DNA of 64,000 nucleotides. Source: a virus (taxonomy: Duplodnaviria > Heunggongvirae > Uroviricota > Caudoviricetes). The notes beneath the pieces are model-generated. The model was given only the letters and a program-made list of their open reading frames with translations. It searched no databases and was not told the origin of the DNA. Position numbers and translations under genes: made by a program. This document shows, in pieces, positions 1 to 37,974 of the stretch (position 1 is its first letter; every line of letters begins with the position of its first letter). The DNA lies in the IMG/VR virus record IMGVR_UViG_2923159863_000006; one strand, given 5' to 3'.

Positions 1-1590
<1,590 letters not shown>

Positions 1591-1620
1591 GGCATTGTCC
1601 TGCGGGGCTTTGCGAGATGG

Positions 1621-2838
1621 TTACGCGCTTTCCTCTGCTTCCTGTACCAATTCCGTACCAGTTTTAACCCTGGTCTGTAGCTTCTCCAGCTCGCTCCAAT
1701 CCGAGGCGGAGTTAAGCCACTTGGCATAAGTCGATAGCAGCATCTGCACGCTGTGGCCTAGCTGCCCAGCGATAAACGCAGGGTTCATGCCAGCCATCAG
1801 GCACATGGTTGCGTATGTGTGGCGGGTGTCATACTGCCGGCGCCTTCTGATGGATAGAGCATCAAGCGCGGCGTGGAAGTGCTTTATGGTAACACTTGGC
1901 TCCTTGATCCACAGCCCGCCTTTGCTGGGCGGGAATACGAACGGGCTGACTGCGAACTCCGAGACGGATGCGACCTGCTTCAGGCGCGCAATCCGCTTGG
2001 CCTCTGCCAGGGCATTTAAGGCACGATCATTGAGCAGCACGTCGCGCTCATGCTTGGTCTTTACTCGCTCCTCGATCCCGCGATCTATGACGATCCGGCA
2101 CACATGAATACGTCGTGCCTCTTCGTCTACCTCATCCCATCGAAGGGCGAACGCCTCTCCAGGCCGAAGACCAGTGAAGAACAGGAATTCGTACAGTGCG
2201 GCGTAGATCCTAGAGTACTTCCCTAGGGTCGCGTACAGGTGCTGGATGATGCGTTCTGCCTCGTCCCTGGTGAATGGATCTACCAGTTTCTTAGACACCC
2301 GCGGCTTCTCAAGGGGCGCCATCGGGTTCTTCTTGATCAGGCCGTCTTTCACAGCGGAATCTAGGATCGTCGACAGCTTGAACATCGCGTTTCGCTTCAC
2401 GCCTGGCGACGTCCACTCGATGCTGCTGATGATTCGGCGCAAGAGGGTAGGCGTGATTTGATCAAGCCGGGCTACTGCTAGATGCGGCATCCAGTATTGG
2501 TTGAGGATGCTCTTGTAGTTCTTCCGTGTCCCAAGCACAATCTCTCGGCTGTCTAGCCAGAGTTGAGCATGCTCACCGAACAGAGGGATTTGGCTGCTGA
2601 CCGATTCCGCAATCGCAGACCCTGGGAAGAACTCTGCATACTTGGCTTCATCCATGATGCCAAGCTTGATTGCCTGGACTACCTGATCTCTAAGACCGGA
2701 TGCAGTCTTAATCCCTTTTTGCGTCGCGGGATAGGGGAGTGTTTCGCACTTCCTTGTTCCGTTCCACATGAAGCGGATACGGATAGAGTTGCCGATGACT
2801 TCCACCCCGGTGGGCATACCCAAAGGCTTTCGAGCCAT
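1621..2838 (-). CDS. int: Tyrosine recombinase / phage integrase (405 aa)
   Basis: C-terminal catalytic region with the R..HxxR..Y pattern (YDTRHTYATMCLMAG ... GHSVQMLLSTYAKW). Identical to 33472-34689. Confidence 0.9.
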   Translation of the reverse strand: MARKPLGMPTGVEVIGNSIRIRFMWNGTRKCETLPYPATQKGIKTASGLRDQVVQAIKLGIMDEAKYAEFFPGSAIAESVSSQIPLFGEHAQLWLDSREIVLGTRKNYKSILNQYWMPHLAVARLDQITPTLLRRIISSIEWTSPGVKRNAMFKLSTILDSAVKDGLIKKNPMAPLEKPRVSKKLVDPFTRDEAERIIQHLYATLGKYSRIYAALYEFLFFTGLRPGEAFALRWDEVDEEARRIHVCRIVIDRGIEERVKTKHERDVLLNDRALNALAEAKRIARLKQVASVSEFAVSPFVFPPSKGGLWIKEPSVTIKHFHAALDALSIRRRRQYDTRHTYATMCLMAGMNPAFIAGQLGHSVQMLLSTYAKWLNSASDWSELEKLQTRVKTGTELVQEAEESA

Positions 2839-3020
2839 TCGTCGTATCTCCGTCGACTGTAGATTATTTTCCCGTTGACCTTGTTCCAGACGCCTTCTGG
2901 AATCTGTCCCTTTGACCGTCTGGTTTGTAGGGCGCGGTAGGTTATCCCAAGCAGCGCCGCCATGACCTGTTCGGGCACCTTGTCTTCGTACTCGATTTGC
3001 TCTGCGGTACTCATAGGCAA
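2679..3020 (-). CDS. xis: Excisionase / AlpA-like small DNA-binding protein
   Basis: Small basic ORF directly upstream of int and overlapping it, with an HTH-like segment (LLGITYRALQTRRSKGQIPEG). The true C-terminus is uncertain. Confidence 0.45.
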   Translation of the reverse strand: MPMSTAEQIEYEDKVPEQVMAALLGITYRALQTRRSKGQIPEGVWNKVNGKIIYSRRRYDEWLESLWVCPPGWKSSATLSVSASCGTEQGSAKHSPIPRRKKGLRLHPVLEIR

Positions 3021-3258
3021 TACCTCTCCGCCCCAGCTATTGCCGGGGAGGGCATGATGGTAGGATTTAGACGCCCAGCCGGGTTAGCTCAGGGAGAGCT
3101 AGTGGCGCCCGGCTGGGCTTACAGCAACCGTCTGATCATTAATTTTCTTATAAATCATGTGCTTATGTGTGATAGCACTAAGAAAATGAGTAAGACCGTC
3201 GGCAACCCGAGCAGCATGGTCTTCATGTAGCCCTTCATGACTCCGTTCCAGAACGGGC

Positions 3259-3444
3259 TCACTCCCCACCACCTGCCTTCCTGCGCTGATTCGCTCTGAT
3301 CCTCTGCGCTTTTTTCTTGGCCTCGTCTCGGCTATCTGCCTCTATGCGAAACACTTCACACAGCGCATAGTCTGGATCATCTGGACTGCCTCCAGTGCTC
3401 CAGCTTCCGTCTGGGAAGCGGGCAACGGTCCATACTAGTTTCAT
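3259..3444 (-). CDS. Hypothetical small phage protein (61 aa)
   Basis: ORF conserved in both repeat copies (35110-35295). Confidence 0.3.
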   Translation of the reverse strand: MKLVWTVARFPDGSWSTGGSPDDPDYALCEVFRIEADSRDEAKKKAQRIRANQRRKAGGGE

Positions 3445-3689
3445 TCCCCACCTCCCATCGACTTGCCGATCTCTGCGGCGGCTTCGGTGATTGCCAGCCT
3501 TGTCGCTGCATCTCGCCTAGCTTTTCCCAATAGATCGCGCAGTATTCGTGACCTGCTTGGTTCGATACCAGGGTCCATTGGTTTTCTCGGTCCGGAGTGA
3601 CTACAAGTCCGCGCTTCACAGCCAGCCTCAGCGCGTCGCCGTCGTCCTTCAGAGGGTTCCAGGTGGCCGGTTATCCCAGCCGCTTCCAT
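3377..3689 (-). pseudogene. Frameshifted homolog of the 115-aa gene at 35292-35639
   Basis: Copy 1 lacks single bases relative to copy 2 (for example gctgcatctcg against gctgccatctcg), which splits the ORF. Confidence 0.5.
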
Positions 3690-3782
3690 CGTTCAGAGGG
3701 CGCGCCATAGTTTCCCAGAACTCGGACCACGTGTATCCAACCCCCGCCGCCCGCGCCGCCAGTTCGAGTAGTTCGCGGTCGT

Positions 3783-4193
3783 TCATTTCTTGGCTCCTTC
3801 TATGGCTGCGTCGATTGCAGCGTCGAGGTGTTCTCCGAATAGATGCGATGTGCGGTTACGAACCACCACAACTCCGCGCTCCTTCTGCCGCAATGCGCGA
3901 TACCGCGCAGCATCCTTCGCCATGCGCCGAATCTGCTCTGGAATGCTGACATTGCCGCCGTCTGGAGGGTCCATGTAGTAGGTACCGGGGAGGGCGCTTG
4001 CGCATTGACTAAGCTCTGCCTCCAGCCGCTCAACCTCGGCAATCAGCCAGAGAACAACATCCGGAGAGGTCGCCACCATGAACTCCTGATCAACGTGGAA
4101 CTCCGGGAAAGCATCTACGGATGAGGCCTTGTACCAGTCGCCTTTGTCGCGCGCCCGCTCCGCCAGCTCCTTCAGCTTGTTGGTGTCGGTCAT
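3783..4193 (-). CDS. Ead/Ea22-like phage early protein (136 aa)
   Basis: Position and sequence are typical of the Ead/Ea22 family in Pseudomonas prophages. Identical to 35636-36046. Confidence 0.6.
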   Translation of the reverse strand: MTDTNKLKELAERARDKGDWYKASSVDAFPEFHVDQEFMVATSPDVVLWLIAEVERLEAELSQCASALPGTYYMDPPDGGNVSIPEQIRRMAKDAARYRALRQKERGVVVVRNRTSHLFGEHLDAAIDAAIEGAKK

Positions 4194-4709
4194 TGCTTTT
4201 TCTCCAAGTGCTTATGAATCAGCCATTGGAGGAAGCTGCCCAAAATGCAAAGCACAAGCAGCACAGGGCCAAGGCCAACGATGTACCCGAGCGCGGCGCC
4301 AAGCCTCATCTCTAGGACGAAGATGAACCATTGGCTGATGGCAATTCCAATGGATGTCCAAGCACGCAATATGCGAGCATCTTCAAAAACGTCTTCATGG
4401 CGCCACCTCGATTCCGGCTTGCTGGAGGGCTTGAGTGATCCGGTCAGTCGCATAGCAGTAGCCGGTATCGAAGTTGTCACGGCAGGAGTTCTGCAGTCAC
4501 GTTGACAGTCCTCGATGCCGTCGTCCGGCAACTCCACCCTCAGAGCCGCGCGGCTGGCTTTCCAAGTCTCCCCAATCCCATTGAATGTGCTCGTACTCGT
4601 ACCGGCCATCAGCCTGTATGGAGAACAGGCCATCGCCAAAGTCGTCGTAATCAGTAGACCAACGCACTTTCGCGTGCGCTTCAAACTCGTCTCTCACTGC
4701 TTGCTCCAT
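4190..4709 (-). pseudogene. Frameshift-fused remnants of two small genes (homologs of 36043-36252 and 36249-36563)
   Basis: The copy-1 ORF is a chimera of two frames. Copy 2 has two clean genes overlapping by ATGA. Confidence 0.5.
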
Positions 4710-4806
4710 CTGCTCAACTCCTGTCCTTTCAACTCGGTCTGCCTGTAGAGTTCCTGCATATCCCGACGACCCGGAAGATTCCCAGGACGGAAGAGAACGA
4801 TGACTA

Positions 4807-5229
4807 TCACTGCCAATATGGTTTCGTTGTCGTTGTCCACGGTTGGTCCTCCGGGGGCGGATGCGTTTGTTTCGTTGTTGGGTGTCGATGCCGTGATTCC
4901 GGCATCGGTATCAGTCGCCCGCCGCTTTGGCGATTAGGTGCATGAGCATTTCGCGCAGTTGCTCGCGCTCGAGCACCTGGCCGGTCTTTGCGTACTCGTC
5001 GGCTTGGCTCAGGATCGCGTCGATCTCGATGTTGAACATGCGGCGAGAGCACGTCTGGCTCACACTGTTCGAGCAGCAACTGGATTGCTCGGGTCGGGTG
5101 CGCCATCGTGATCCCGAGCCAGTTGTAGGCCGAGGCAGTGCGGTAGTAGCGGAGGCCGGCGATCTCATGTCGGCGCGGCGGGCGGAAGGGTTTCGTGCGC
5201 ATATTCAATCCGGGTAGTGGGTAGCCCAT
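4807..5229 (-). pseudogene. Frameshifted homolog of 36765-37082
   Basis: 1-bp insertion (catgcggcg against catcggcg) relative to copy 2. Confidence 0.45.
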
Positions 5230-5273
5230 TATCCGAATTGCTGTATATGCGTACAGTGGTTGGCGATGGGTGG

Positions 5274-5456
5274 CTATGCCTGCTCGCTCAGCAGGGCGCG
5301 GAGTTCGTTGCGAGCTACGACGTAATCAGCATGCGAAAGCAGTGGCTCGCACAGCCTGCGCAAAAGCCCCTCGCTGACCACTACATGGCCCGCTGGAATA
5401 ACTGCCAACTCCCGCACTTCATAGCCTGGCCAGTCCTGAGGGTTTGCTCTGACCAT
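5274..5456 (-). pseudogene. Truncated homolog of 37127-37390
   Basis: Same protein sequence as copy 2 over 60 aa, then interrupted. Confidence 0.4.
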
Positions 5457-5539
5457 GTCGTGGTGCTCCTTGGAGCAGGGGCGCCATTCTCCCGGATGGC
5501 TTGTGAAGAACGAGTAGTACGCTTCATCTCACCCATTGC

Positions 5540-5904
5540 TAACTCTCCGTATCAAGTAGCGCCCGGCATACCGGCAGTCCGGATCGCGTGCTTCGTGCCC
5601 CTCAAGGCAATCGGGGCACAGTCCGTTGTTCATGTGCTTCCTTTCCCGTAGCGGACCTGCGGAGCGTGTCGTGATTCGCTGACCGTCAGGCCGTTGGGCG
5701 CCGTCTCGAGGCAGGCGTTAAAAGCCGTCCGTCTTCAGGTTCTCAGCGGTAGGCAGCAGGCCTCCCCATTGCCGGGCTCCGGCACAACCACCACCCCTGC
5801 GCGCAGGGCTTCTAGGTCTTGCTCGACAACATCCCGTTCGCGCATAGCTTTCAAGCACATGCGCCTGCTCTCGTCGGCGACATGTTTGAGATCCTCGATG
5901 TGCG
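5540..5904 (-). pseudogene. 3' part of the homolog of 37393-37974, truncated at the repeat boundary
   Basis: Identity with copy 2 ends abruptly at 5904 (37764 in copy 2). Confidence 0.4.
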
Positions 5905-11924: not shown

Positions 11925-12246
11925 AACTCTGCTTCGCGTGATGAGGGGAGAGTTTGCGTTCTACCTGACCGAAGGGTCGAAGGGAGGCAAGAAAGGTGGG
12001 GCGCGCTGGGCCTTATACCGAACCAGCGGGTACGGGAAGATCAAGGACGGATTCGTCTTCGTCAACAGCGGTGACCGCGCCAGGCTGCTGGCAATGACGA
12101 ACGACGGTGAACGGATGGATGCCTGCCAGGCACTGTTCGACAGTAAGAAACGCCGGGCCTACGTTCGGCGCTGCGAGATTCGCGGCCCATCCGGCCGCTG
12201 GGAGGGGCTTGCATTCAAGCCTAGGCCTCAGGAATGCGCTACCTGA
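11902..12246 (+). CDS. Hypothetical protein (114 aa)
   Basis: ORF only. Confidence 0.3.
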   Translation: MVGVAMARTLLRVMRGEFAFYLTEGSKGGKKGGARWALYRTSGYGKIKDGFVFVNSGDRARLLAMTNDGERMDACQALFDSKKRRAYVRRCEIRGPSGRWEGLAFKPRPQECAT

Positions 12247-12509
12247 CTGTTAAAAAATTCGCCAGCGAGTCTGGCTACACCGAAGACGCCGTGCGCTCGA
12301 AGATCCGCGACGGAATCTGGCGCCTCGGCGAGATATGGAAAAAAGCACCGGATGGCCGGACGCTTATTGATGTAGAGGGGTATGAAGCATGGGTAGAGAT
12401 GGGCGGGGAGTCAGGGCAGTCTCTGATTCGAGTATCGAAATCACGTTCATGTATCGCGGCGTCAGGTGCCGGGAGCGCATCTCGCTCAAGCCCACCGCCA
12501 CTAACCTGA
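12234..12509 (+). CDS. xis: Phage excisionase-like HTH protein
   Basis: LTVKKFASESGYTEDAVRSKIRDGIWRLGEIWKKAPDGRTLIDVEGYEAWVE, immediately upstream of and overlapping int. Confidence 0.55.
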   Translation: MRYLTVKKFASESGYTEDAVRSKIRDGIWRLGEIWKKAPDGRTLIDVEGYEAWVEMGGESGQSLIRVSKSRSCIAASGAGSASRSSPPPLT

Positions 12510-13543
12510 AGCGAGCAGAGCAGCACAAGGCGGCTATCGAACATGCGATCGCCGCCGGTACCTTCGACTACTCGGTGACATTTCCTGGATCTCCGCGCGC
12601 CGCCAAGTTTGCGCCTGAGGCGTCACGCGAGACGGTTGCGGGATTCCTTGGCCGATGGCTTGAGTCGAAGCGCAAGCACGTCTCCAGCAGCACCTTCGAG
12701 GGCTACAGGAAGATTGTAGAGCTTCGTCTGGTGCCGGCCCTTGGGCCCGTCATGGTGGTCGACCTGAAGCGGAAGGCCGTCAAGGATTGGCTGGACACCC
12801 TGAAGGTGAGCAACAAGACGCTCAGCAATATCCAGAGCTGCCTACGCTCGGCCCTCAGTGATGCGATGGAAGAGGAACTGATCGACAGCAACCCCCTCGC
12901 CGGCTGGACATACGCAAGGAAGGGAGAGGTCAAGGACGACGACGTGGACCCATTCTCGCCGGAAGAGCAGCAGGCGATTCTGAGTGCCCTCGATGGTCAA
13001 GGGCGGAACCTAGTACAGTTCGCATTCTGGACGGGGATGCGTACCAGCGAACTCGTCGGCCTCGAGTGGGGCGATATTGACTGGCTCCGCGGCGAGGTGC
13101 GCGTCACCCGCGCCATGACCCAGGCAGCCAAGGGAAAAGCGGAGGTGACGAAGACCACTTCCGGCCGGCGCAGCATCAAGCTGCTCGGCCCTGCGCTGGA
13201 AGCCTTGAAGGCGCAAAAGGAATTCACCTACCTGGCCAATCAGGAAGTCTTCCAGAACCCGAGGACGGGCGAGCGATGGGCCGGCGACGGACCGATCCGG
13301 AAAACACTCTGGGTTTACGCGCTGAAGAAGGCCGGCGTGCGCTACCGTCGTCCGTACCAGACCCGGCACACCTACGCATCCATGATGCTGTCTGCCGGGG
13401 AGCATCCGATGTGGGTAGCCACACAGATGGGGCACAGCGACTGGACCATGATTGCCAGGGTATATGGCAGATGGATGCCTGCCGCAGATGCGTCGGCAGG
13501 GGAAAAGCTGAGCAGATGTGGCAAGGCGACGAGCCTCAATTGA
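12389..13543 (+). CDS. int: Lambda-family tyrosine integrase (384 aa) with an arm-type N-terminal domain
   Basis: DSSIEITFMYRGVRCRERISLKPT...GTFDY matches lambda Int N-terminus. C-terminal R..H..R..Y catalytic region (YQTRHTYASMMLSAG ... GHSDWTMIARVYGRW). Confidence 0.85.
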   Translation: MGRDGRGVRAVSDSSIEITFMYRGVRCRERISLKPTATNLKRAEQHKAAIEHAIAAGTFDYSVTFPGSPRAAKFAPEASRETVAGFLGRWLESKRKHVSSSTFEGYRKIVELRLVPALGPVMVVDLKRKAVKDWLDTLKVSNKTLSNIQSCLRSALSDAMEEELIDSNPLAGWTYARKGEVKDDDVDPFSPEEQQAILSALDGQGRNLVQFAFWTGMRTSELVGLEWGDIDWLRGEVRVTRAMTQAAKGKAEVTKTTSGRRSIKLLGPALEALKAQKEFTYLANQEVFQNPRTGERWAGDGPIRKTLWVYALKKAGVRYRRPYQTRHTYASMMLSAGEHPMWVATQMGHSDWTMIARVYGRWMPAADASAGEKLSRCGKATSLN

Positions 13544-13578
13544 CATCCTTGAAGGCTAGCGGATAATCATCGACCGTT

Positions 13579-14076
13579 TTGATGTCACATGCTATACACA
13601 CGTTATCCACAGGAAATGACCAAGGAGGTCTTATGCCAAGCTCTATCGATGTGGCGAAGTTTTTCCTCGCCCAATCCAACGAAGAGGCCGGCGACCTTGT
13701 GTCCAACCTGAAGCTGCAGAAGCTCGTGTACTACGCTCAGGGCTTCCATCTCGCCGTCTACGATGAGCCTTTGTTCACTGACTCCATCGAAGCATGGACG
13801 CACGGTCCTGTCGTGCCGAACGTCTATCACCACTACAAGCAGTTCGGCTCGGGCAGCATCCCAGCGCCCATAGACTTCAATCTGGAAGCGTTCAGCCCCG
13901 AGCAAGTAGAACTGCTCAATGAAGTGCAGCAGATCTACGGGCAGTATTCGGCTTGGCGACTGCGCGAGATGACCCACGAAGAAGCCCCCTGGCGGAACAA
14001 TTATCAGGCAGGGGCGATGAGCCGTGAAATTCCTGCGGACGACATGCGCCAGTTCTTTAAAACCCTTGTGAAGTAA
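13579..14076 (+). CDS. Panacea-domain (DUF4065, SocA/GepA-like) protein
   Basis: LKLQKLVYYAQGFHLAVYDEPLFTDSIEAWTHGPVVPNVYHHYKQFG is the DUF4065 signature. Alternative start at 13633. Confidence 0.65.
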   Translation: MMSHAIHTLSTGNDQGGLMPSSIDVAKFFLAQSNEEAGDLVSNLKLQKLVYYAQGFHLAVYDEPLFTDSIEAWTHGPVVPNVYHHYKQFGSGSIPAPIDFNLEAFSPEQVELLNEVQQIYGQYSAWRLREMTHEEAPWRNNYQAGAMSREIPADDMRQFFKTLVK

Positions 14077-14085
14077 GGGCGTGGC

Positions 14086-14499
14086 ATGGCACGTCTCAGG
14101 GATAGAGGCTCTAAAAGCAGTCTATTACTCAAGGAAAGGCCAGCACCTACTGAGAACCCGGAGCTGAAGCCGCCTTTGTTTTCCTTCGAGTTCATGCAGG
14201 CGGATTACTGCGTGTCGGAGTGCACGTCTGATGAGAGAAGCCAGGTACTATCCAAGCTTCGCACTCTCAGCCAAATGTCTTGGCAACAGATCAAGCAAGC
14301 CCCTCGCCATGGTCTTGGGTTCGAGATTATCGGGCGTCCATCCTTCAAGGCCGCAATTCCAGCCTTCGTTACAGACGACACCAACCTGATCTCATTCCGT
14401 GCAATTGGCAAAGCCCCAATGGTCGGGTATCGCGACGGTCGGGTATTTCACATCCTTTGGATCGATAGAGATTTCACCGTATACGATCACGGGTCTTAG
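14086..14499 (+). CDS. Hypothetical 137-aa protein immediately downstream of the Panacea gene (candidate toxin/effector partner)
   Basis: Intact ORF 9 nt after the DUF4065 gene. No recognisable family. Confidence 0.45.
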   Translation: MARLRDRGSKSSLLLKERPAPTENPELKPPLFSFEFMQADYCVSECTSDERSQVLSKLRTLSQMSWQQIKQAPRHGLGFEIIGRPSFKAAIPAFVTDDTNLISFRAIGKAPMVGYRDGRVFHILWIDRDFTVYDHGS

Positions 14500-14503
14500 C
14501 TGT

Positions 14504-14525
14504 AATGACAGCCTTATGACAGCTT
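14504..14525 (+). repeat. 22-bp direct repeat, left copy (gtaatgacagccttatgacagc)
   Basis: Repeated with 2 mismatches at 14664-14685. The two copies flank the tmRNA fragment and its terminator. Confidence 0.5.
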
Positions 14526-14529
14526 CCAG

Positions 14530-14587
14530 CCTGGAAGCCGCGTCAAATGGGGGCTAGATGCGGGTTCAAATCCCCCCGGCTCCACCA
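14530..14587 (+). ncRNA. ssrA: 3'-terminal fragment of tmRNA (ssrA), att-site remnant, not a complete gene
   Basis: GGATGCGGGTTCAAATCCCCCCGGCTCCACCA matches the tmRNA T-arm and acceptor end (E. coli GGACGCGGGTTCAACTCCCGCCAGCTCCACCA). No upstream tmRNA or tRNA body. Confidence 0.55.
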
Positions 14588-14604
14588 AACAACCCTTACA
14601 AATC

Positions 14605-14637
14605 AGGCACTTAGCGATTATCGCAAGTGCCTTTTTT
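14605..14637 (+). terminator. Rho-independent terminator (native ssrA terminator carried with the fragment)
   Basis: aggcacttagcgattatcgcaagtgcc hairpin followed by TTTTTT. Confidence 0.55.
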
Positions 14638-14663
14638 GTGCCTGAATGGGCTGTTTTGGCTCG

Positions 14664-14685
14664 GTAATGCCAGCTTTATGACAGC
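14664..14685 (+). repeat. 22-bp direct repeat, right copy
   Basis: gtaatgccagctttatgacagc. Confidence 0.5.
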
Positions 14686-14688
14686 CTG

Positions 14689-14790
14689 TCATTCACCTCT
14701 GTTCGCCTCCGGCAGCGGGAAGCGCACCCTGATCTCATCGACCTTGCGACCCAAGCGCTGTAGTCCGGTTCAGCGCCGGCCTTGACGTGC
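14689..14790 (-). pseudogene. 3' fragment of a tail-fibre-assembly-like gene (diverged duplicate of 15107-15346)
   Basis: Minus-strand translation HVKAGAEPDYSAWVA.VDEIRVRFPLPEAN aligns with DAIKAGVEPDYSAWMAKVEEIKARFPLP. About 75 percent nucleotide identity to 15120-15200. Confidence 0.5.
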
Positions 14791-15106
14791 GGAAAGGGAA
14801 TTTAAACGCTCAACAAAGCACAACAATATCACCGGCCGCCACACGCTCGGACAGGAATGTCAGCTTGCCGATCCCTTCCTGCAGAAATCGGCTGAGTTGC
14901 TCGATGCACTCGCGCTGGTCATCAGTGAGGCTGAACTCAGCCTCCATGCTTTCCATCAGGTCAAGGCAACACTGGTTGAGGAATCCCACCTCCAGTAACT
15001 CCGCCCGGAGCCTACGCCGCAACATCTCGTCCATACCAACATCCCTATCTACTCCGCATATCAGACTGTCGGAACGTGGCAAAAACGTGAACCTCGTCAC
15101 AACTAC

Positions 15107-33293: not shown

Positions 33294-33415
33294 TCTGGAG
33301 AAGGAAGGCGTGTACCATTTTTTGTACCAATCGCTGCGAATTCTGGCGAATCATGTCGCCTGAAAGCCTTGATTTTACAGCGCTGCGCATCGCTTTACAT
33401 CGCGAAAAAAATCGC

Positions 33416-33443
33416 ATGGTGATGTTAGCTGTAGATATCAAGG
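33416..33443. other. Internal att (attP-like junction) carrying a ybiT 5'-end mimic
   Basis: Same 27 bp as 1563-1590, preceded by phage rather than ybiT sequence. Confidence 0.5.
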
Positions 33444-33471
33444 CATTGTCCTGCGGGGCTTTGCGAGATGG

Positions 33472-34689
33472 TTACGCGCTTTCCTCTGCTTCCTGTACCA
33501 ATTCCGTACCAGTTTTAACCCTGGTCTGTAGCTTCTCCAGCTCGCTCCAATCCGAGGCGGAGTTAAGCCACTTGGCATAAGTCGATAGCAGCATCTGCAC
33601 GCTGTGGCCTAGCTGCCCAGCGATAAACGCAGGGTTCATGCCAGCCATCAGGCACATGGTTGCGTATGTGTGGCGGGTGTCATACTGCCGGCGCCTTCTG
33701 ATGGATAGAGCATCAAGCGCGGCGTGGAAGTGCTTTATGGTAACACTTGGCTCCTTGATCCACAGCCCGCCTTTGCTGGGCGGGAATACGAACGGGCTGA
33801 CTGCGAACTCCGAGACGGATGCGACCTGCTTCAGGCGCGCAATCCGCTTGGCCTCTGCCAGGGCATTTAAGGCACGATCATTGAGCAGCACGTCGCGCTC
33901 ATGCTTGGTCTTTACTCGCTCCTCGATCCCGCGATCTATGACGATCCGGCACACATGAATACGTCGTGCCTCTTCGTCTACCTCATCCCATCGAAGGGCG
34001 AACGCCTCTCCAGGCCGAAGACCAGTGAAGAACAGGAATTCGTACAGTGCGGCGTAGATCCTAGAGTACTTCCCTAGGGTCGCGTACAGGTGCTGGATGA
34101 TGCGTTCTGCCTCGTCCCTGGTGAATGGATCTACCAGTTTCTTAGACACCCGCGGCTTCTCAAGGGGCGCCATCGGGTTCTTCTTGATCAGGCCGTCTTT
34201 CACAGCGGAATCTAGGATCGTCGACAGCTTGAACATCGCGTTTCGCTTCACGCCTGGCGACGTCCACTCGATGCTGCTGATGATTCGGCGCAAGAGGGTA
34301 GGCGTGATTTGATCAAGCCGGGCTACTGCTAGATGCGGCATCCAGTATTGGTTGAGGATGCTCTTGTAGTTCTTCCGTGTCCCAAGCACAATCTCTCGGC
34401 TGTCTAGCCAGAGTTGAGCATGCTCACCGAACAGAGGGATTTGGCTGCTGACCGATTCCGCAATCGCAGACCCTGGGAAGAACTCTGCATACTTGGCTTC
34501 ATCCATGATGCCAAGCTTGATTGCCTGGACTACCTGATCTCTAAGACCGGATGCAGTCTTAATCCCTTTTTGCGTCGCGGGATAGGGGAGTGTTTCGCAC
34601 TTCCTTGTTCCGTTCCACATGAAGCGGATACGGATAGAGTTGCCGATGACTTCCACCCCGGTGGGCATACCCAAAGGCTTTCGAGCCAT
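33472..34689 (-). CDS. int: Tyrosine integrase (identical to 1621-2838)
   Basis: As above. Confidence 0.9.
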   Translation of the reverse strand: MARKPLGMPTGVEVIGNSIRIRFMWNGTRKCETLPYPATQKGIKTASGLRDQVVQAIKLGIMDEAKYAEFFPGSAIAESVSSQIPLFGEHAQLWLDSREIVLGTRKNYKSILNQYWMPHLAVARLDQITPTLLRRIISSIEWTSPGVKRNAMFKLSTILDSAVKDGLIKKNPMAPLEKPRVSKKLVDPFTRDEAERIIQHLYATLGKYSRIYAALYEFLFFTGLRPGEAFALRWDEVDEEARRIHVCRIVIDRGIEERVKTKHERDVLLNDRALNALAEAKRIARLKQVASVSEFAVSPFVFPPSKGGLWIKEPSVTIKHFHAALDALSIRRRRQYDTRHTYATMCLMAGMNPAFIAGQLGHSVQMLLSTYAKWLNSASDWSELEKLQTRVKTGTELVQEAEESA

Positions 34690-34871
34690 TCGTCGTATCT
34701 CCGTCGACTGTAGATTATTTTCCCGTTGACCTTGTTCCAGACGCCTTCTGGAATCTGTCCCTTTGACCGTCTGGTTTGTAGGGCGCGGTAGGTTATCCCA
34801 AGCAGCGCCGCCATGACCTGTTCGGGCACCTTGTCTTCGTACTCGATTTGCTCTGCGGTACTCATAGGCAA
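34530..34871 (-). CDS. xis: Excisionase / AlpA-like
   Basis: As 2679-3020. Confidence 0.45.
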   Translation of the reverse strand: MPMSTAEQIEYEDKVPEQVMAALLGITYRALQTRRSKGQIPEGVWNKVNGKIIYSRRRYDEWLESLWVCPPGWKSSATLSVSASCGTEQGSAKHSPIPRRKKGLRLHPVLEIR

Positions 34872-35109
34872 TACCTCTCCGCCCCAGCTATTGCCGGGGA
34901 GGGCATGATGGTAGGATTTAGACGCCCAGCCGGGTTAGCTCAGGGAGAGCTAGTGGCGCCCGGCTGGGCTTACAGCAACCGTCTGATCATTAATTTTCTT
35001 ATAAATCATGTGCTTATGTGTGATAGCACTAAGAAAATGAGTAAGACCGTCGGCAACCCGAGCAGCATGGTCTTCATGTAGCCCTTCATGACTCCGTTCC
35101 AGAACGGGC

Positions 35110-35295
35110 TCACTCCCCACCACCTGCCTTCCTGCGCTGATTCGCTCTGATCCTCTGCGCTTTTTTCTTGGCCTCGTCTCGGCTATCTGCCTCTATGCGA
35201 AACACTTCACACAGCGCATAGTCTGGATCATCTGGACTGCCTCCAGTGCTCCAGCTTCCGTCTGGGAAGCGGGCAACGGTCCATACTAGTTTCAT
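35110..35295 (-). CDS. Hypothetical 61-aa protein
   Basis: Conserved with 3259-3444. The upstream extension of the listed ORF overlaps the next gene out of frame. Confidence 0.3.
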   Translation of the reverse strand: MKLVWTVARFPDGSWSTGGSPDDPDYALCEVFRIEADSRDEAKKKAQRIRANQRRKAGGGE

Positions 35296-35639
35296 TCCCC
35301 ACCTCCCATCGACTTGCCGATCTCTGCGGCGGCTTCGGTGATTGCCAGCCTTGTCGCTGCCATCTCGCCTAGCTTTTCCCAATAGATCGCGCAGTATTCG
35401 TGACCTGCTTGGTTCGATACCAGGGTCCATTGGTTTTCTCGGTCCGGAGTGACTACAAGTCCGCGCTTCACAGCCAGCCTCAGCGCGTCGCCGTCGTCCT
35501 TCAGAGGGTTCCAGGTGGCCCGGTTATCCCAGCCGCTTCCATCGTTCAGAGGGCGCGCCATAGTTTCCCAGAACTCGGACCACGTGTATCCAACCCCCGC
35601 CGCCCGCGCCGCCAGTTCGAGTAGTTCGCGGTCGTTCAT
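35292..35639 (-). CDS. Hypothetical phage early protein (115 aa)
   Basis: Intact here. Frameshifted in copy 1. Confidence 0.45.
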   Translation of the reverse strand: MNDRELLELAARAAGVGYTWSEFWETMARPLNDGSGWDNRATWNPLKDDGDALRLAVKRGLVVTPDRENQWTLVSNQAGHEYCAIYWEKLGEMAATRLAITEAAAEIGKSMGGGE

Positions 35640-36046
35640 TTCTTGGCTCCTTCTATGGCTGCGTCGATTGCAGCGTCGAGGTGTTCTCCGAATAGATGCG
35701 ATGTGCGGTTACGAACCACCACAACTCCGCGCTCCTTCTGCCGCAATGCGCGATACCGCGCAGCATCCTTCGCCATGCGCCGAATCTGCTCTGGAATGCT
35801 GACATTGCCGCCGTCTGGAGGGTCCATGTAGTAGGTACCGGGGAGGGCGCTTGCGCATTGACTAAGCTCTGCCTCCAGCCGCTCAACCTCGGCAATCAGC
35901 CAGAGAACAACATCCGGAGAGGTCGCCACCATGAACTCCTGATCAACGTGGAACTCCGGGAAAGCATCTACGGATGAGGCCTTGTACCAGTCGCCTTTGT
36001 CGCGCGCCCGCTCCGCCAGCTCCTTCAGCTTGTTGGTGTCGGTCAT
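35636..36046 (-). CDS. Ead/Ea22-like protein
   Basis: Identical to 3783-4193. Confidence 0.6.
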   Translation of the reverse strand: MTDTNKLKELAERARDKGDWYKASSVDAFPEFHVDQEFMVATSPDVVLWLIAEVERLEAELSQCASALPGTYYMDPPDGGNVSIPEQIRRMAKDAARYRALRQKERGVVVVRNRTSHLFGEHLDAAIDAAIEGAKK

Positions 36047-36252
36047 TGCTTTTTCTCCAAGTGCTTATGAATCAGCCATTGGAGGAAGCTGCCCAAAATG
36101 CAAAGCACAAGCAGCACAGGGCCAAGGCCAACGATGTACCCGAGCGCGGCGCCAAGCCTCATCTCTAGGACGAAGATGAACCATTGGCTGATGGCAATTC
36201 CAATGGATGTCCCAAGCACGCAATATGCGAGCATCTTCAAAAACGTCTTCAT
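36043..36252 (-). CDS. Small two-TM membrane protein (69 aa)
   Basis: Hydrophobic. ATGA-coupled to the upstream gene. Confidence 0.45.
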   Translation of the reverse strand: MKTFLKMLAYCVLGTSIGIAISQWFIFVLEMRLGAALGYIVGLGPVLLVLCILGSFLQWLIHKHLEKKQ

Positions 36253-36563
36253 GGCGCCACCTCGATTCCGGCTTGCTGGAGGGCTTGAGTGATCCGGTCA
36301 GTCGCATAGCAGTAGCCGGTATCGAAGTTGTCACGGCAGGAGTTCTGCCAGTCACGTTGACAGTCCTCGATGCCGTCGTCCGGCAACTCCACCCTCAGAG
36401 CCGCGCGGCTGGCTTTCCAAGTCTCCCAATCCCATTGAATGTGCTCGTACTCGTACCGGCCATCAGCCTGTATGGAGAACAGGCCATCGCCAAAGTCGTC
36501 GTAATCAGTAGACCAACGCACTTTCGCGTGCGCTTCAAACTCGTCTCTCACTGCTTGCTCCAT
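36249..36563 (-). CDS. Hypothetical protein (104 aa)
   Basis: Intact ORF. Confidence 0.45.
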   Translation of the reverse strand: MEQAVRDEFEAHAKVRWSTDYDDFGDGLFSIQADGRYEYEHIQWDWETWKASRAALRVELPDDGIEDCQRDWQNSCRDNFDTGYCYATDRITQALQQAGIEVAP

Positions 36564-36764
36564 CTGCTCAACTCCTGTCCTTTCAACTCGGTCTGCCTGT
36601 AGAGTTCCTGCATATCCCCGACGACCCGGAAGATTCCCAGGACGAAGAGAACGATGACTATCACTGCCAATATGGTTTCGTTGTCGTTGTCCACGGTTGG
36701 TCCTCCGGGGGCGGATGCGTTTGTTTCGTTGTTGGGTGTCGATGCCGTGATTCCGGCATCGGTA

Positions 36765-37082
36765 TCAGTCGCCCGCCGCTTTGGCGATTAGGTGCATGAG
36801 CATTTCGCGCAGTTGCTCGCGCTCGAGCACCTGGCCGGTCTTTGCGTACTCGTCGGCTTGGCTCAGGATCGCGTCGATCTCGATGTTGAACATCGGCGAG
36901 AGCACGTCTGGCTCACACTGTTCGAGCAGCAACTGGATTGCTCGGGTCGGGTGCGCCATCGTGATCCCGAGCCAGTTGTAGGCCGAGGCAGTGCGGTAGT
37001 AGCGGAGGCCGGCGATCTCATGTCGGCGCGGCGGGCGGAAGGGTTTCGTGCGCATATTCAATCCGGGTAGTGGGTAGCCCAT
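36765..37082 (-). CDS. Hypothetical protein (105 aa)
   Basis: Intact ORF. Confidence 0.45.
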   Translation of the reverse strand: MGYPLPGLNMRTKPFRPPRRHEIAGLRYYRTASAYNWLGITMAHPTRAIQLLLEQCEPDVLSPMFNIEIDAILSQADEYAKTGQVLEREQLREMLMHLIAKAAGD

Positions 37083-37126
37083 TATCCGAATTGCTGTATA
37101 TGCGTACAGTGGTTGGCGATGGGTGG

Positions 37127-37390
37127 CTATGCCTGCTCGCTCAGCAGGGCGCGGAGTTCGTTGCGAGCTACGACGTAATCAGCATGCGAAAGCAGTGGCT
37201 CGCACAGCCTGCGCAAAAGCCCCTCGCTGACCACTACATGGCCCGCTGGAATAACTGCCAACTCCCGCACTTCATAGCCTGGCCAGTCCTGAGGGTTTGC
37301 TCTGACCATGTCGTGGTGCTCCTTGGAGCAGGGGCGCCATTCTCCCGGATGGCTTGTGAAGAACGAGTAGTACCGCTTCATCTCACCCAT
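37127..37390 (-). CDS. Hypothetical protein (87 aa)
   Basis: Intact ORF. Confidence 0.45.
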   Translation of the reverse strand: MGEMKRYYSFFTSHPGEWRPCSKEHHDMVRANPQDWPGYEVRELAVIPAGHVVVSEGLLRRLCEPLLSHADYVVARNELRALLSEQA

Positions 37391-37392
37391 TG

Positions 37393-37974
37393 CTAACTCT
37401 CCGTATCAAGTAGCGCCCGGCATACCGGGCAGTCCGGATCGCGTGCTTCGTGCCCCTCAAGGCAATCGGGGCACAGTCCGTTGTTCATGTGCTTGACTTT
37501 CCCGGTAGCGGACCTGCGGAGCGTGTCGAGCGCTGATTCGCTGACCGTCAGGCCGTTGAGGCGCGCCAGTTCGTCGAGGCAGGCGTTAAAGCCGTCCGTC
37601 TTCAGGTTCTCAGCGGTAGGCAGCAGGCCTCCCCATTGCCGGCGCTCCGGCACAACCACCACCCCTGCGCGCAGGGCTTCTAGGTCTTGCTCGACAACAT
37701 CCCGTTCGCGCATAGCTTTCAAGCACATGCGCCTGCTCTCGTCGGCGACATGTTTGAGATCCTCGATGTGCGCCCCGATCATCCGACCAATGTCATCCGG
37801 CTTGTCTGGGAATCGTGCGCGGTCTTCGAGAAGGCGCGCGACTTCCTCCCTTAGCGCCTGGGCCTCGGCTTCGAGCTTGGCGTAGTCGGCATCCGCGACG
37901 TGACCCTTCACAGCGCCGCAGTCCGGGCATTGCAGCGCGCCGAAATCCCAAGCTTCGTGCGAGCAGTTACTCAT
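37393..37974 (-). CDS. Zinc-ribbon protein with coiled-coil middle (193 aa)
   Basis: N-terminal CPDCG and C-terminal CPDCLEGHEARDPDCPVC cysteine pairs. Confidence 0.45.
   Translation of the reverse strand: MSNCSHEAWDFGALQCPDCGAVKGHVADADYAKLEAEAQALREEVARLLEDRARFPDKPDDIGRMIGAHIEDLKHVADESRRMCLKAMRERDVVEQDLEALRAGVVVVPERRQWGGLLPTAENLKTDGFNACLDELARLNGLTVSESALDTLRRSATGKVKHMNNGLCPDCLEGHEARDPDCPVCRALLDTES

Follow-up and report, generated by a model that had tools for sequence, protein, structure and literature searches.

A Panacea-domain gene pair with a putative RNase toxin in the integrase–attP slot of a temperate Pseudomonas aeruginosa phage

Organization of the locus

The window, as we call the whole stretch of 64,000 nucleotides analysed here (Caudoviricetes virus record IMGVR_UViG_2923159863_000006), carries behind a tyrosine integrase gene two adjoining plus-strand genes, which we designate panA and panT (Table 1). 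The two genes are in the same frame and the gap between the stop codon of panA and the start codon of panT is 9 nt, a spacing within the limit of ≤100 nt applied by Kurata et al. 2022 to predicted Panacea pairs. Their products form an acidic/basic couple (pI 5.0 for PanA, 9.0 for PanT), as is typical for type II modules. The first-pass annotation had described four elements, namely a Panacea gene, its partner, an integrase and a tmRNA-like att element; all four are indeed present, with two corrections to their coordinates, one of which concerns the start of panA.

Table 1. Features of the panAT cassette and its immediate surroundings (positions in the window)
Feature	Position	Strand	Basis
Tyrosine integrase (context gene)	12389..13543	+	Pfam Arm-DNA-bind_2 5e-21, Phage_integrase 8e-16, Phage_int_SAM_3
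Exchangeable cargo cassette, 1048 bp	13456..14503	.	blastn against JBD68 and D14B
Sigma-70-like promoter of panAT	13540..13567	+	TTGACA-16 nt-GATAAT, 11/12 consensus positions; consensus match only
panA Shine-Dalgarno AAGGAGG	13622..13628	+	By eye in the sequence; 4 nt 5' of ATG 13633
panA, putative antitoxin, 147 aa	13633..14076	+	PF13274; phrog_1281 1e-58
panT, putative toxin, 137 aa	14086..14499	+	RelE/YafQ-like BECR core predicted
attP core, 38-nt copy of the tmRNA 3' end (T-arm, acceptor strand, CCA)	14550..14587	+	Rfam RF00023
Intrinsic terminator, 12-bp hairpin then UUUUUUG	14605..14640	+	RNA fold

The open reading frame of panA could be extended upstream to a TTG at 13579. We rejected this start, which lies ~12 nt past the -10 box; ATG 13633, almost certainly the true start, is favoured by the end of the promoter at 13567, by the ribosome-binding site and by the length of the publicly annotated protein, 147 aa. 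On the minus strand, ORFs at 13603-13977 and 14205-14411 overlap the pair; we regarded them as non-coding because the plus-strand genes encode conserved proteins.

The promoter-like site and the integrase stop codon overlap. No operator-like inverted repeat was found in the promoter region, and since PanA is also devoid of a DNA-binding domain, classical autoregulation of the operon is unsupported. On the 3' side, panT is followed by the att core, the terminator and then a minus-strand DUF7364 gene. The terminator hairpin, which a simple terminator scan missed, has a predicted ΔG of -22.3 kcal/mol (z -6.35 versus shuffled sequences). It would stop the panAT transcript and, after integration into ssrA, would presumably also sit behind the rebuilt tmRNA gene. 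The GC content of the cassette is 0.537, versus 0.634 in its left and 0.596 in its right flank.

The carrier phage and its cargo slot

Six records of temperate P. aeruginosa phages, for example vB_Pae_CF55b, match the region 12200-14700 with 100% identity; all of them come from isolates of cystic fibrosis and bronchiectasis. A 41.4-kb entry deposited as a plasmid carries this region in identical form as well. The phage records share a colinear order in which the integrase gene is followed by the pair, the att core and the tail-fibre genes. The att element, which occurs once in the window, gives a local match to the Rfam tmRNA model (E 1.5e-4). The window contains no complete gene for a tmRNA or a tRNA, and a 39-mer of the core also occurs in the phage records CF55b and CF34a. 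We considered a prophage/host junction at this site and discarded it: because the phage records run colinearly through the att core, it represents an attP core within contiguous phage DNA.

Two related phages reveal the limits of the cassette. JBD68 and vB_PaeS-D14B are ~95% identical to the window from 12200 up to 13455 and again from 14504 onward (blastn), with identical break points in both phages. Between these points they carry two unrelated minus-strand genes that belong to no Pfam family. The exchangeable segment thus takes in the last ~29 codons of the integrase gene, from 13456 onward. The cargo position, previously proposed from the neighbouring integrase and att site, is borne out by this comparison, in which homology is found on both sides of 13456-14503 and other genes lie inside. 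The carrier is a temperate siphovirus of P. aeruginosa and the cassette occupies its integrase–attP slot.

The same pair is found in the P22-like phages Emek, EC.P3, E212 and phiv205-1 of Salmonella and E. coli, with 55% identity for PanA and 41% for PanT. In these phages its neighbours are the injection-protein genes on one side and mnt/arc/ant on the other, and an annotated terminator follows the pair. In P22 itself, this location is the site of the superinfection-exclusion gene sieA. The presence of the pair in different phage backbones indicates that the cassette acts as a moron of accessory-gene slots. Most likely, panAT is a self-contained moron with its own promoter-like site, two genes, a terminator and low GC content.

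PanA is a Panacea-domain protein

PanA matches the Pfam family PF13274 SocA_Panacea (DUF4065) with 88.6 bits versus a cut-off of 25.7 (E 6.9e-25), and the match spans positions 1-112 of the 113 in the profile. The assignment to DUF4065/Panacea, made earlier from the letters, thus holds in a profile search. The exact 147-aa protein is present on 996 contigs under the public name 'Panacea domain-containing protein'. As it contains no extra domain, it corresponds to the 'noNTD' type of Kurata et al. The NCBIfam SocA equivalog NF047745 gives 73.1 bits versus a cut-off of 190 (E 2.2e-20), which represents partial similarity; with a score below the equivalog cut-off, PanA is a Panacea protein but not an orthologue of SocA. 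A comparison of PanA with the PDB sequences found no solved relative.

PanT has a predicted RelE/YafQ-like fold

The reality of panT as a gene is supported by its distribution: the identical protein is encoded on 931 P. aeruginosa contigs and 1721 cluster representatives match the PanT family profile at E<=1e-3. The best 150 of these 1721 matches are all standalone proteins of ~100-165 aa. The lack of a family match noted for the partner in the first-pass annotation is confirmed for Pfam, where no family was detected for PanT or any of 46 members (E<=1). It does not extend to other collections, as PanT matches PHROG 8366 (4e-62), the PADLOC model of NsnC (see below) and, under the curated cut-off, NCBIfam MAG6450_fam.

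Sequence comparison did not link PanT to RelE, YoeB, YafQ or ParE. The family profile gave 0 matches at E<=10 against all PDB sequences, and its hhalign comparison with E. coli YafQ and YoeB returned a probability <1%. An AlphaFold2 model built from an alignment of 46 homologues has a mean pLDDT of 88. In this model, residues ~1-28 form a Lys/Arg-rich tail that is of low confidence or disordered, and the core (~30-137) is arranged in the order strand, two helices, four strands. The Foldseek search that had been suggested for the 137-aa protein ranked RelE, HigB and YoeB top in the PDB, but with E >= 0.25, which is not significant; a search against the BFVD viral models gave nothing significant. 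In the model, the core of PanT has the RelE/YoeB/YafQ (BECR) fold of the RelE/ParE superfamily. Compared with RelE, YoeB, YafQ and HigB, to which it has no detectable sequence similarity, PanT possesses ~45 extra N-terminal residues, comprising the basic low-confidence tail and one strand.

The conserved polar residues of PanT are R74, H75, E80, R105, R116, D127, R128, Y133 and H135. Conservation in the family is high for H75 (51/58), E80 (57/58), R105 (55/58) and D127 (57/58), and Y133 and H135 are present in 56/56 sequences each. H75, E80, R105, Y133 and H135 are near-invariant, and their positions are plausible for the predicted secondary structure. This pattern suggests a putative RNase site resembling that of YoeB and YafQ.

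Relationship of PanT to the Menshen effector NsnC

Residues 32-136 of PanT align with positions 182-284 of the 284-position PADLOC model of NsnC, PDLC03891 (E 8.8e-11), and 44 of the 46 PanT family members match this model. According to Li et al. 2025 (PMC12065111), the C-terminal part of NsnC is a PB-BECR1 domain, an RNase of the BECR fold that resembles YafQ and carries an H-R-H triad. This domain is the proposed effector of Menshen, a defence system found experimentally (Millman 2022 system; PMC12065111). By this alignment, the whole folded core of PanT is homologous in sequence to this RNase effector domain, and PanT retains H75, R105 and H135 as putative counterparts of the triad.

However, the locus does not encode a Menshen system. 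The match of PanT to the NsnC model is confined to its C-terminal part, and the 137-aa protein is without the N-terminal inactive-PIN domain that NsnC carries. Neither NsnA (ParB-DUF262) nor NsnB (ABC ATPase) genes adjoin panT, the upstream neighbours of which are the integrase and PanA genes. We therefore rejected membership in NsnABC. The two systems would also differ in the way the effector is controlled, by an ATPase in Menshen and by a Panacea protein in the case of PanT. A word-index search with the PanT alignment returned only standalone ~135-aa 'hypothetical protein' matches and no multidomain NsnC.

Conservation of the pair across genomes

In a GTDB sample of one genome per species, 80 loci encode a relative of PanT. 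In 77 of them the ORF directly upstream, in the same orientation, is PanA-like; in the remaining 3/80 a contig end falls within 150 nt, so that the association holds in 77/77 evaluable loci. The tight linkage noted in the single sequence is consequently a property of the pair in very different taxa. Its hosts include Pseudomonas, many cyanobacteria, deltaproteobacteria, Acidobacteria, Bacteroidota and one ANME archaeon. Metagenomic contigs keep the PanA-PanT order as well, and the neighbouring genes are unrelated between loci. The divergences of PanA and PanT are correlated (r = 0.76), with a mean conservation of 0.56 for PanA versus 0.52 for the PanT core. Such a pattern is characteristic of a two-gene module that is autonomous and moves horizontally.

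Relationship to described PanAT systems

Kurata et al. 2022 (PMC8832971) surveyed the neighbourhoods of DUF4065 genes and predicted 1268 PanA-toxin pairs with 88 toxin clusters. Cluster T1, with 217 of the 1268 predicted pairs from many phyla, is among the two largest predicted groups of Panacea toxins (PMC8832971). PanT aligns over its full length (100% of the query) with WP_043255446.1 of P. knackmussii B13 at 83% identity. Dataset S1 of that study lists this homologue as pT1/T1, together with the PanA WP_043255445.1 in the order A|T and with a gap of 11 (PMC8832971). At the sequence level, PanT of the window can thus be assigned to cluster T1. The arrangement is also the one seen in T1, where the gene of a standalone Panacea protein leads and that of a toxin of ~135 aa, annotated as 'hypothetical protein', follows a few bases downstream. 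The window copy differs from the P. knackmussii homologue, which is only listed by Kurata et al., in residing on temperate phages of P. aeruginosa, in the int-attP slot.

The experimental record of T1 is short. A single T1 pair, from Clostridium cadaveris, has been assayed in E. coli; the toxin was classed as 'mRNase' and recorded as 'toxic', and the antitoxin 'failed to neutralise' it (PMC8832971). Since the lone assayed pair is toxic without neutralisation, T1 is not yet a validated toxin–antitoxin family. In our literature search we found no published test of the present Pseudomonas phage pair.

SocAB, a type VI toxin–antitoxin system of Caulobacter, has an antitoxin with the same Pfam SocA_Panacea domain as PanA; however, its partner SocB is cluster T10 of Kurata et al., and PanT is T1. 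With the SocA score of 73.1 versus 190 bits and a T1 partner instead of SocB, membership in SocAB was rejected. The antitoxins of RelE-type toxins are RelB, YefM, DinJ and HigA, whereas that of PanT would be a globular Panacea domain.

Discussion

The pair belongs to a kind already catalogued, PanAT with a toxin of cluster T1. The earlier description of the pair as novel and of its partner as unknown therefore has to be abandoned, in view of the listed 83% identical homologue (PMC8832971), the predicted RelE/ParE fold and the homology to NsnC. The present analysis contributes the assignment of a fold to PanT, its homology to the effector domain of Menshen and the cassette-swap context. The more general reading of the locus as a candidate toxin–antitoxin or defence module was reasonable and is supported as a candidate.

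We consider it probable that the two genes form a type II PanAT operon in which the putative toxin PanT is a translation-inhibiting RNase that PanA masks. PanT would be an endoribonuclease, most likely cleaving mRNA on the ribosome in the manner of RelE, YoeB and YafQ. Catalysis would involve H75, E80, R105, Y133 and H135, and would bring translation to a stop. PanA would bind PanT directly through its Panacea domain and keep it inactive. We favour direct binding because direct neutralisation by standalone Panacea domains and PanA-PanT complexes have both been reported. If PanA were lost or displaced, whether because the prophage has been lost or because an infecting phage gives a cue, PanT would be set free, translation would halt and the cell would be arrested. 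The lysogen might gain abortive-infection-type protection from superinfection, stabilization of the prophage, or both. We are less confident of the biological role, defence or addiction, than of this mechanism; for a role in defence, it is the context of the genes that speaks.

The part played by PanA may be conceived differently, as that of a SocA-like protease adaptor, or mainly of a sensor that needs host factors to control PanT. The failure of the PanA of the sole assayed T1 toxin to neutralise in the heterologous host E. coli fits such a role, as do the partial match to SocA in NCBIfam (2.2e-20) and the proposal of Ernits et al. 2023 (PMC10440598) that sensing is the primary task of the Panacea domain. 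The conservation of PanA relative to the PanT core (0.56 vs 0.52) may also hint at constraints beyond PanT binding. However, the score of 73 versus 190 bits for the SocA equivalog and the assignment of the partner to T1, with SocB in T10, argue against a SocA-like adaptor. Pull-downs have moreover shown stable PanA-PanT complexes for five pairs of other clusters (PMC8832971), and direct neutralisation by standalone Panacea domains is backed by mutagenesis (Ernits et al. 2023, PMC10440598). We consider the adaptor or sensor role unlikely.

It is also conceivable that the pair is neither a toxin–antitoxin nor a defence module, PanT being catalytically inactive or harmless and the genes serving some other function of the phage. 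Such cases may exist among predicted pairs, as 8 of 25 assayed PanTs were non-toxic in E. coli (PMC8832971), and no defence-system model covers the pair as a whole. Against this stand the toxic member of the same cluster T1, the resemblance of the conserved polar residues of PanT to an active site and the homology to a domain put forward as the effector of Menshen, a defence system discovered by experiment. Strictly linked in varied genomic surroundings, from bacteria and an archaeon to unrelated phages, the two genes show the hallmark of autonomous addictive or defensive modules. A function outside toxin–antitoxin and defence systems is thus quite improbable. The RelE/ParE fold takes in gyrase poisons too, and PanT might accordingly be a ParE-like gyrase poison or another non-RNase toxin of this fold; the pair would still be a toxin–antitoxin module, with a block of replication instead of translation. 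To this possibility we give very little credence.

A further speculation, which we regard as doubtful, is that the T1 pair might not be a classical addiction module but a minimal abortive-infection system of prophages, in which the Panacea protein senses an incoming phage and releases the PB-BECR1 RNase, an effector that an ATPase controls in the three-gene Menshen system. A sensing function of Panacea would explain why the assayed T1 PanA did not act as a simple antitoxin in E. coli. If this were true, one RNase effector would have been plugged into two unrelated sensing architectures, Panacea and the Menshen ATPase.

These results leave current concepts unchanged and their value is incremental. 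We did not find the connection between the T1 toxin and the Menshen PB-BECR1 domain stated in the papers we consulted, and their homology provides a hypothesis for both systems, that of the same RNase under two different controllers. The Pseudomonas phage copy would be a convenient test case for T1, because its native host and related cassette-free phages exist. The 931 P. aeruginosa contigs with the identical toxin include phages induced from cystic-fibrosis and bronchiectasis isolates. As the pair is common in P. aeruginosa, panAT could affect host range in phage therapy or the stability of prophages in this species of clinical importance.

Composition of the window

The window is mosaic, with a junction at about 20808. 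Matches between 14.5 and 20.8 kb are to siphovirus genes for tails and tail fibres (LESphi2, MD8 and LPPA33-like), those from 20.8 to 31.4 kb are to genes of Ab31/YA3/MPK9/Shamal-type phages, and those to YA3 and HB2107-3I reach as far as ~35.9–36.4 kb. The phage records underlying these matches annotate a portal, a tail fibre, an O-polysaccharide acetyltransferase or acyltransferase and a second site-specific integrase. From 38 to 63 kb the matches are to replication, repressor and terminase regions in the same phage group.

Two near-identical blocks, at 1563-5904 and 33414-37772, lie ~31.85 kb apart and consist of stretches of 100% identity broken by small indels. Because this early-gene-like block is the only duplicated part of the window, the sequence does not look like a simple concatemer and appears instead to hold a pair of related phage genomes or prophages lying next to each other.

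Downstream of the att core

A strong terminator hairpin (14605-14640) lies a short way 3' of the copy of the tmRNA 3' end. Integration into ssrA would place this hairpin behind the rebuilt tmRNA gene, so that the phage apparently supplies both a substitute tmRNA 3' end and a terminator. The first gene past the att region codes for a DUF7364 protein and stands at the end of a minus-strand block of tail-fibre genes (see table).

Features of the window and of related phage records
Record	Feature	Coordinates	Strand	Details
Window	DUF7364 protein gene	14810-15100	minus	Pfam 4.4e-43
Salmonella phage Emek (L089)	homologous PanA-PanT pair	3014-3887		
Escherichia phage EC.P3 (L090)	homologous PanA-PanT pair	3022-3893		
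Phage JBD68 (L006)	int-attP slot equivalent	2858-3717	minus	two genes: gp30 (127 aa), gp29 (137 aa)
Phage D14B (L007)	int-attP slot equivalent	3032-3717	plus (52-aa ORF)	137-aa gene and 52-aa ORF

Cargo and PanA-PanT in other phages

The slot between integrase and attP (13456-14503 in the window) carries different cargo in the related phages JBD68 and D14B. A Pfam search assigned none of their slot genes to a family; these genes may represent another uncharacterised moron or defence pair.

Homologues of the PanA-PanT pair are also found in P22-like phages, where the pair has its own annotated terminator and is flanked by injection-protein genes and mnt/arc/ant. The annotated start of the second ORF in Emek gives a 62-nt overlap with panA, and this ORF as annotated is probably too long.

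The pair is present at 100% identity, adjoining an integrase, in PLSDB record NZ_CP124653.1 (40410-41370). This P. aeruginosa record of 41.4 kb is classed as a non-mobilizable plasmid and probably represents a circular phage genome that was assembled as a replicon.

In phage vB_Pae_CF34a (L008; 1738-3365) the integrase is split between two short ORFs, and the annotated PanA is a fragment of 87 aa next to an intact PanT. Either the copy is degraded or its assembly or annotation is faulty. Were the arrangement genuine, an intact toxin gene would adjoin a truncated antitoxin gene.
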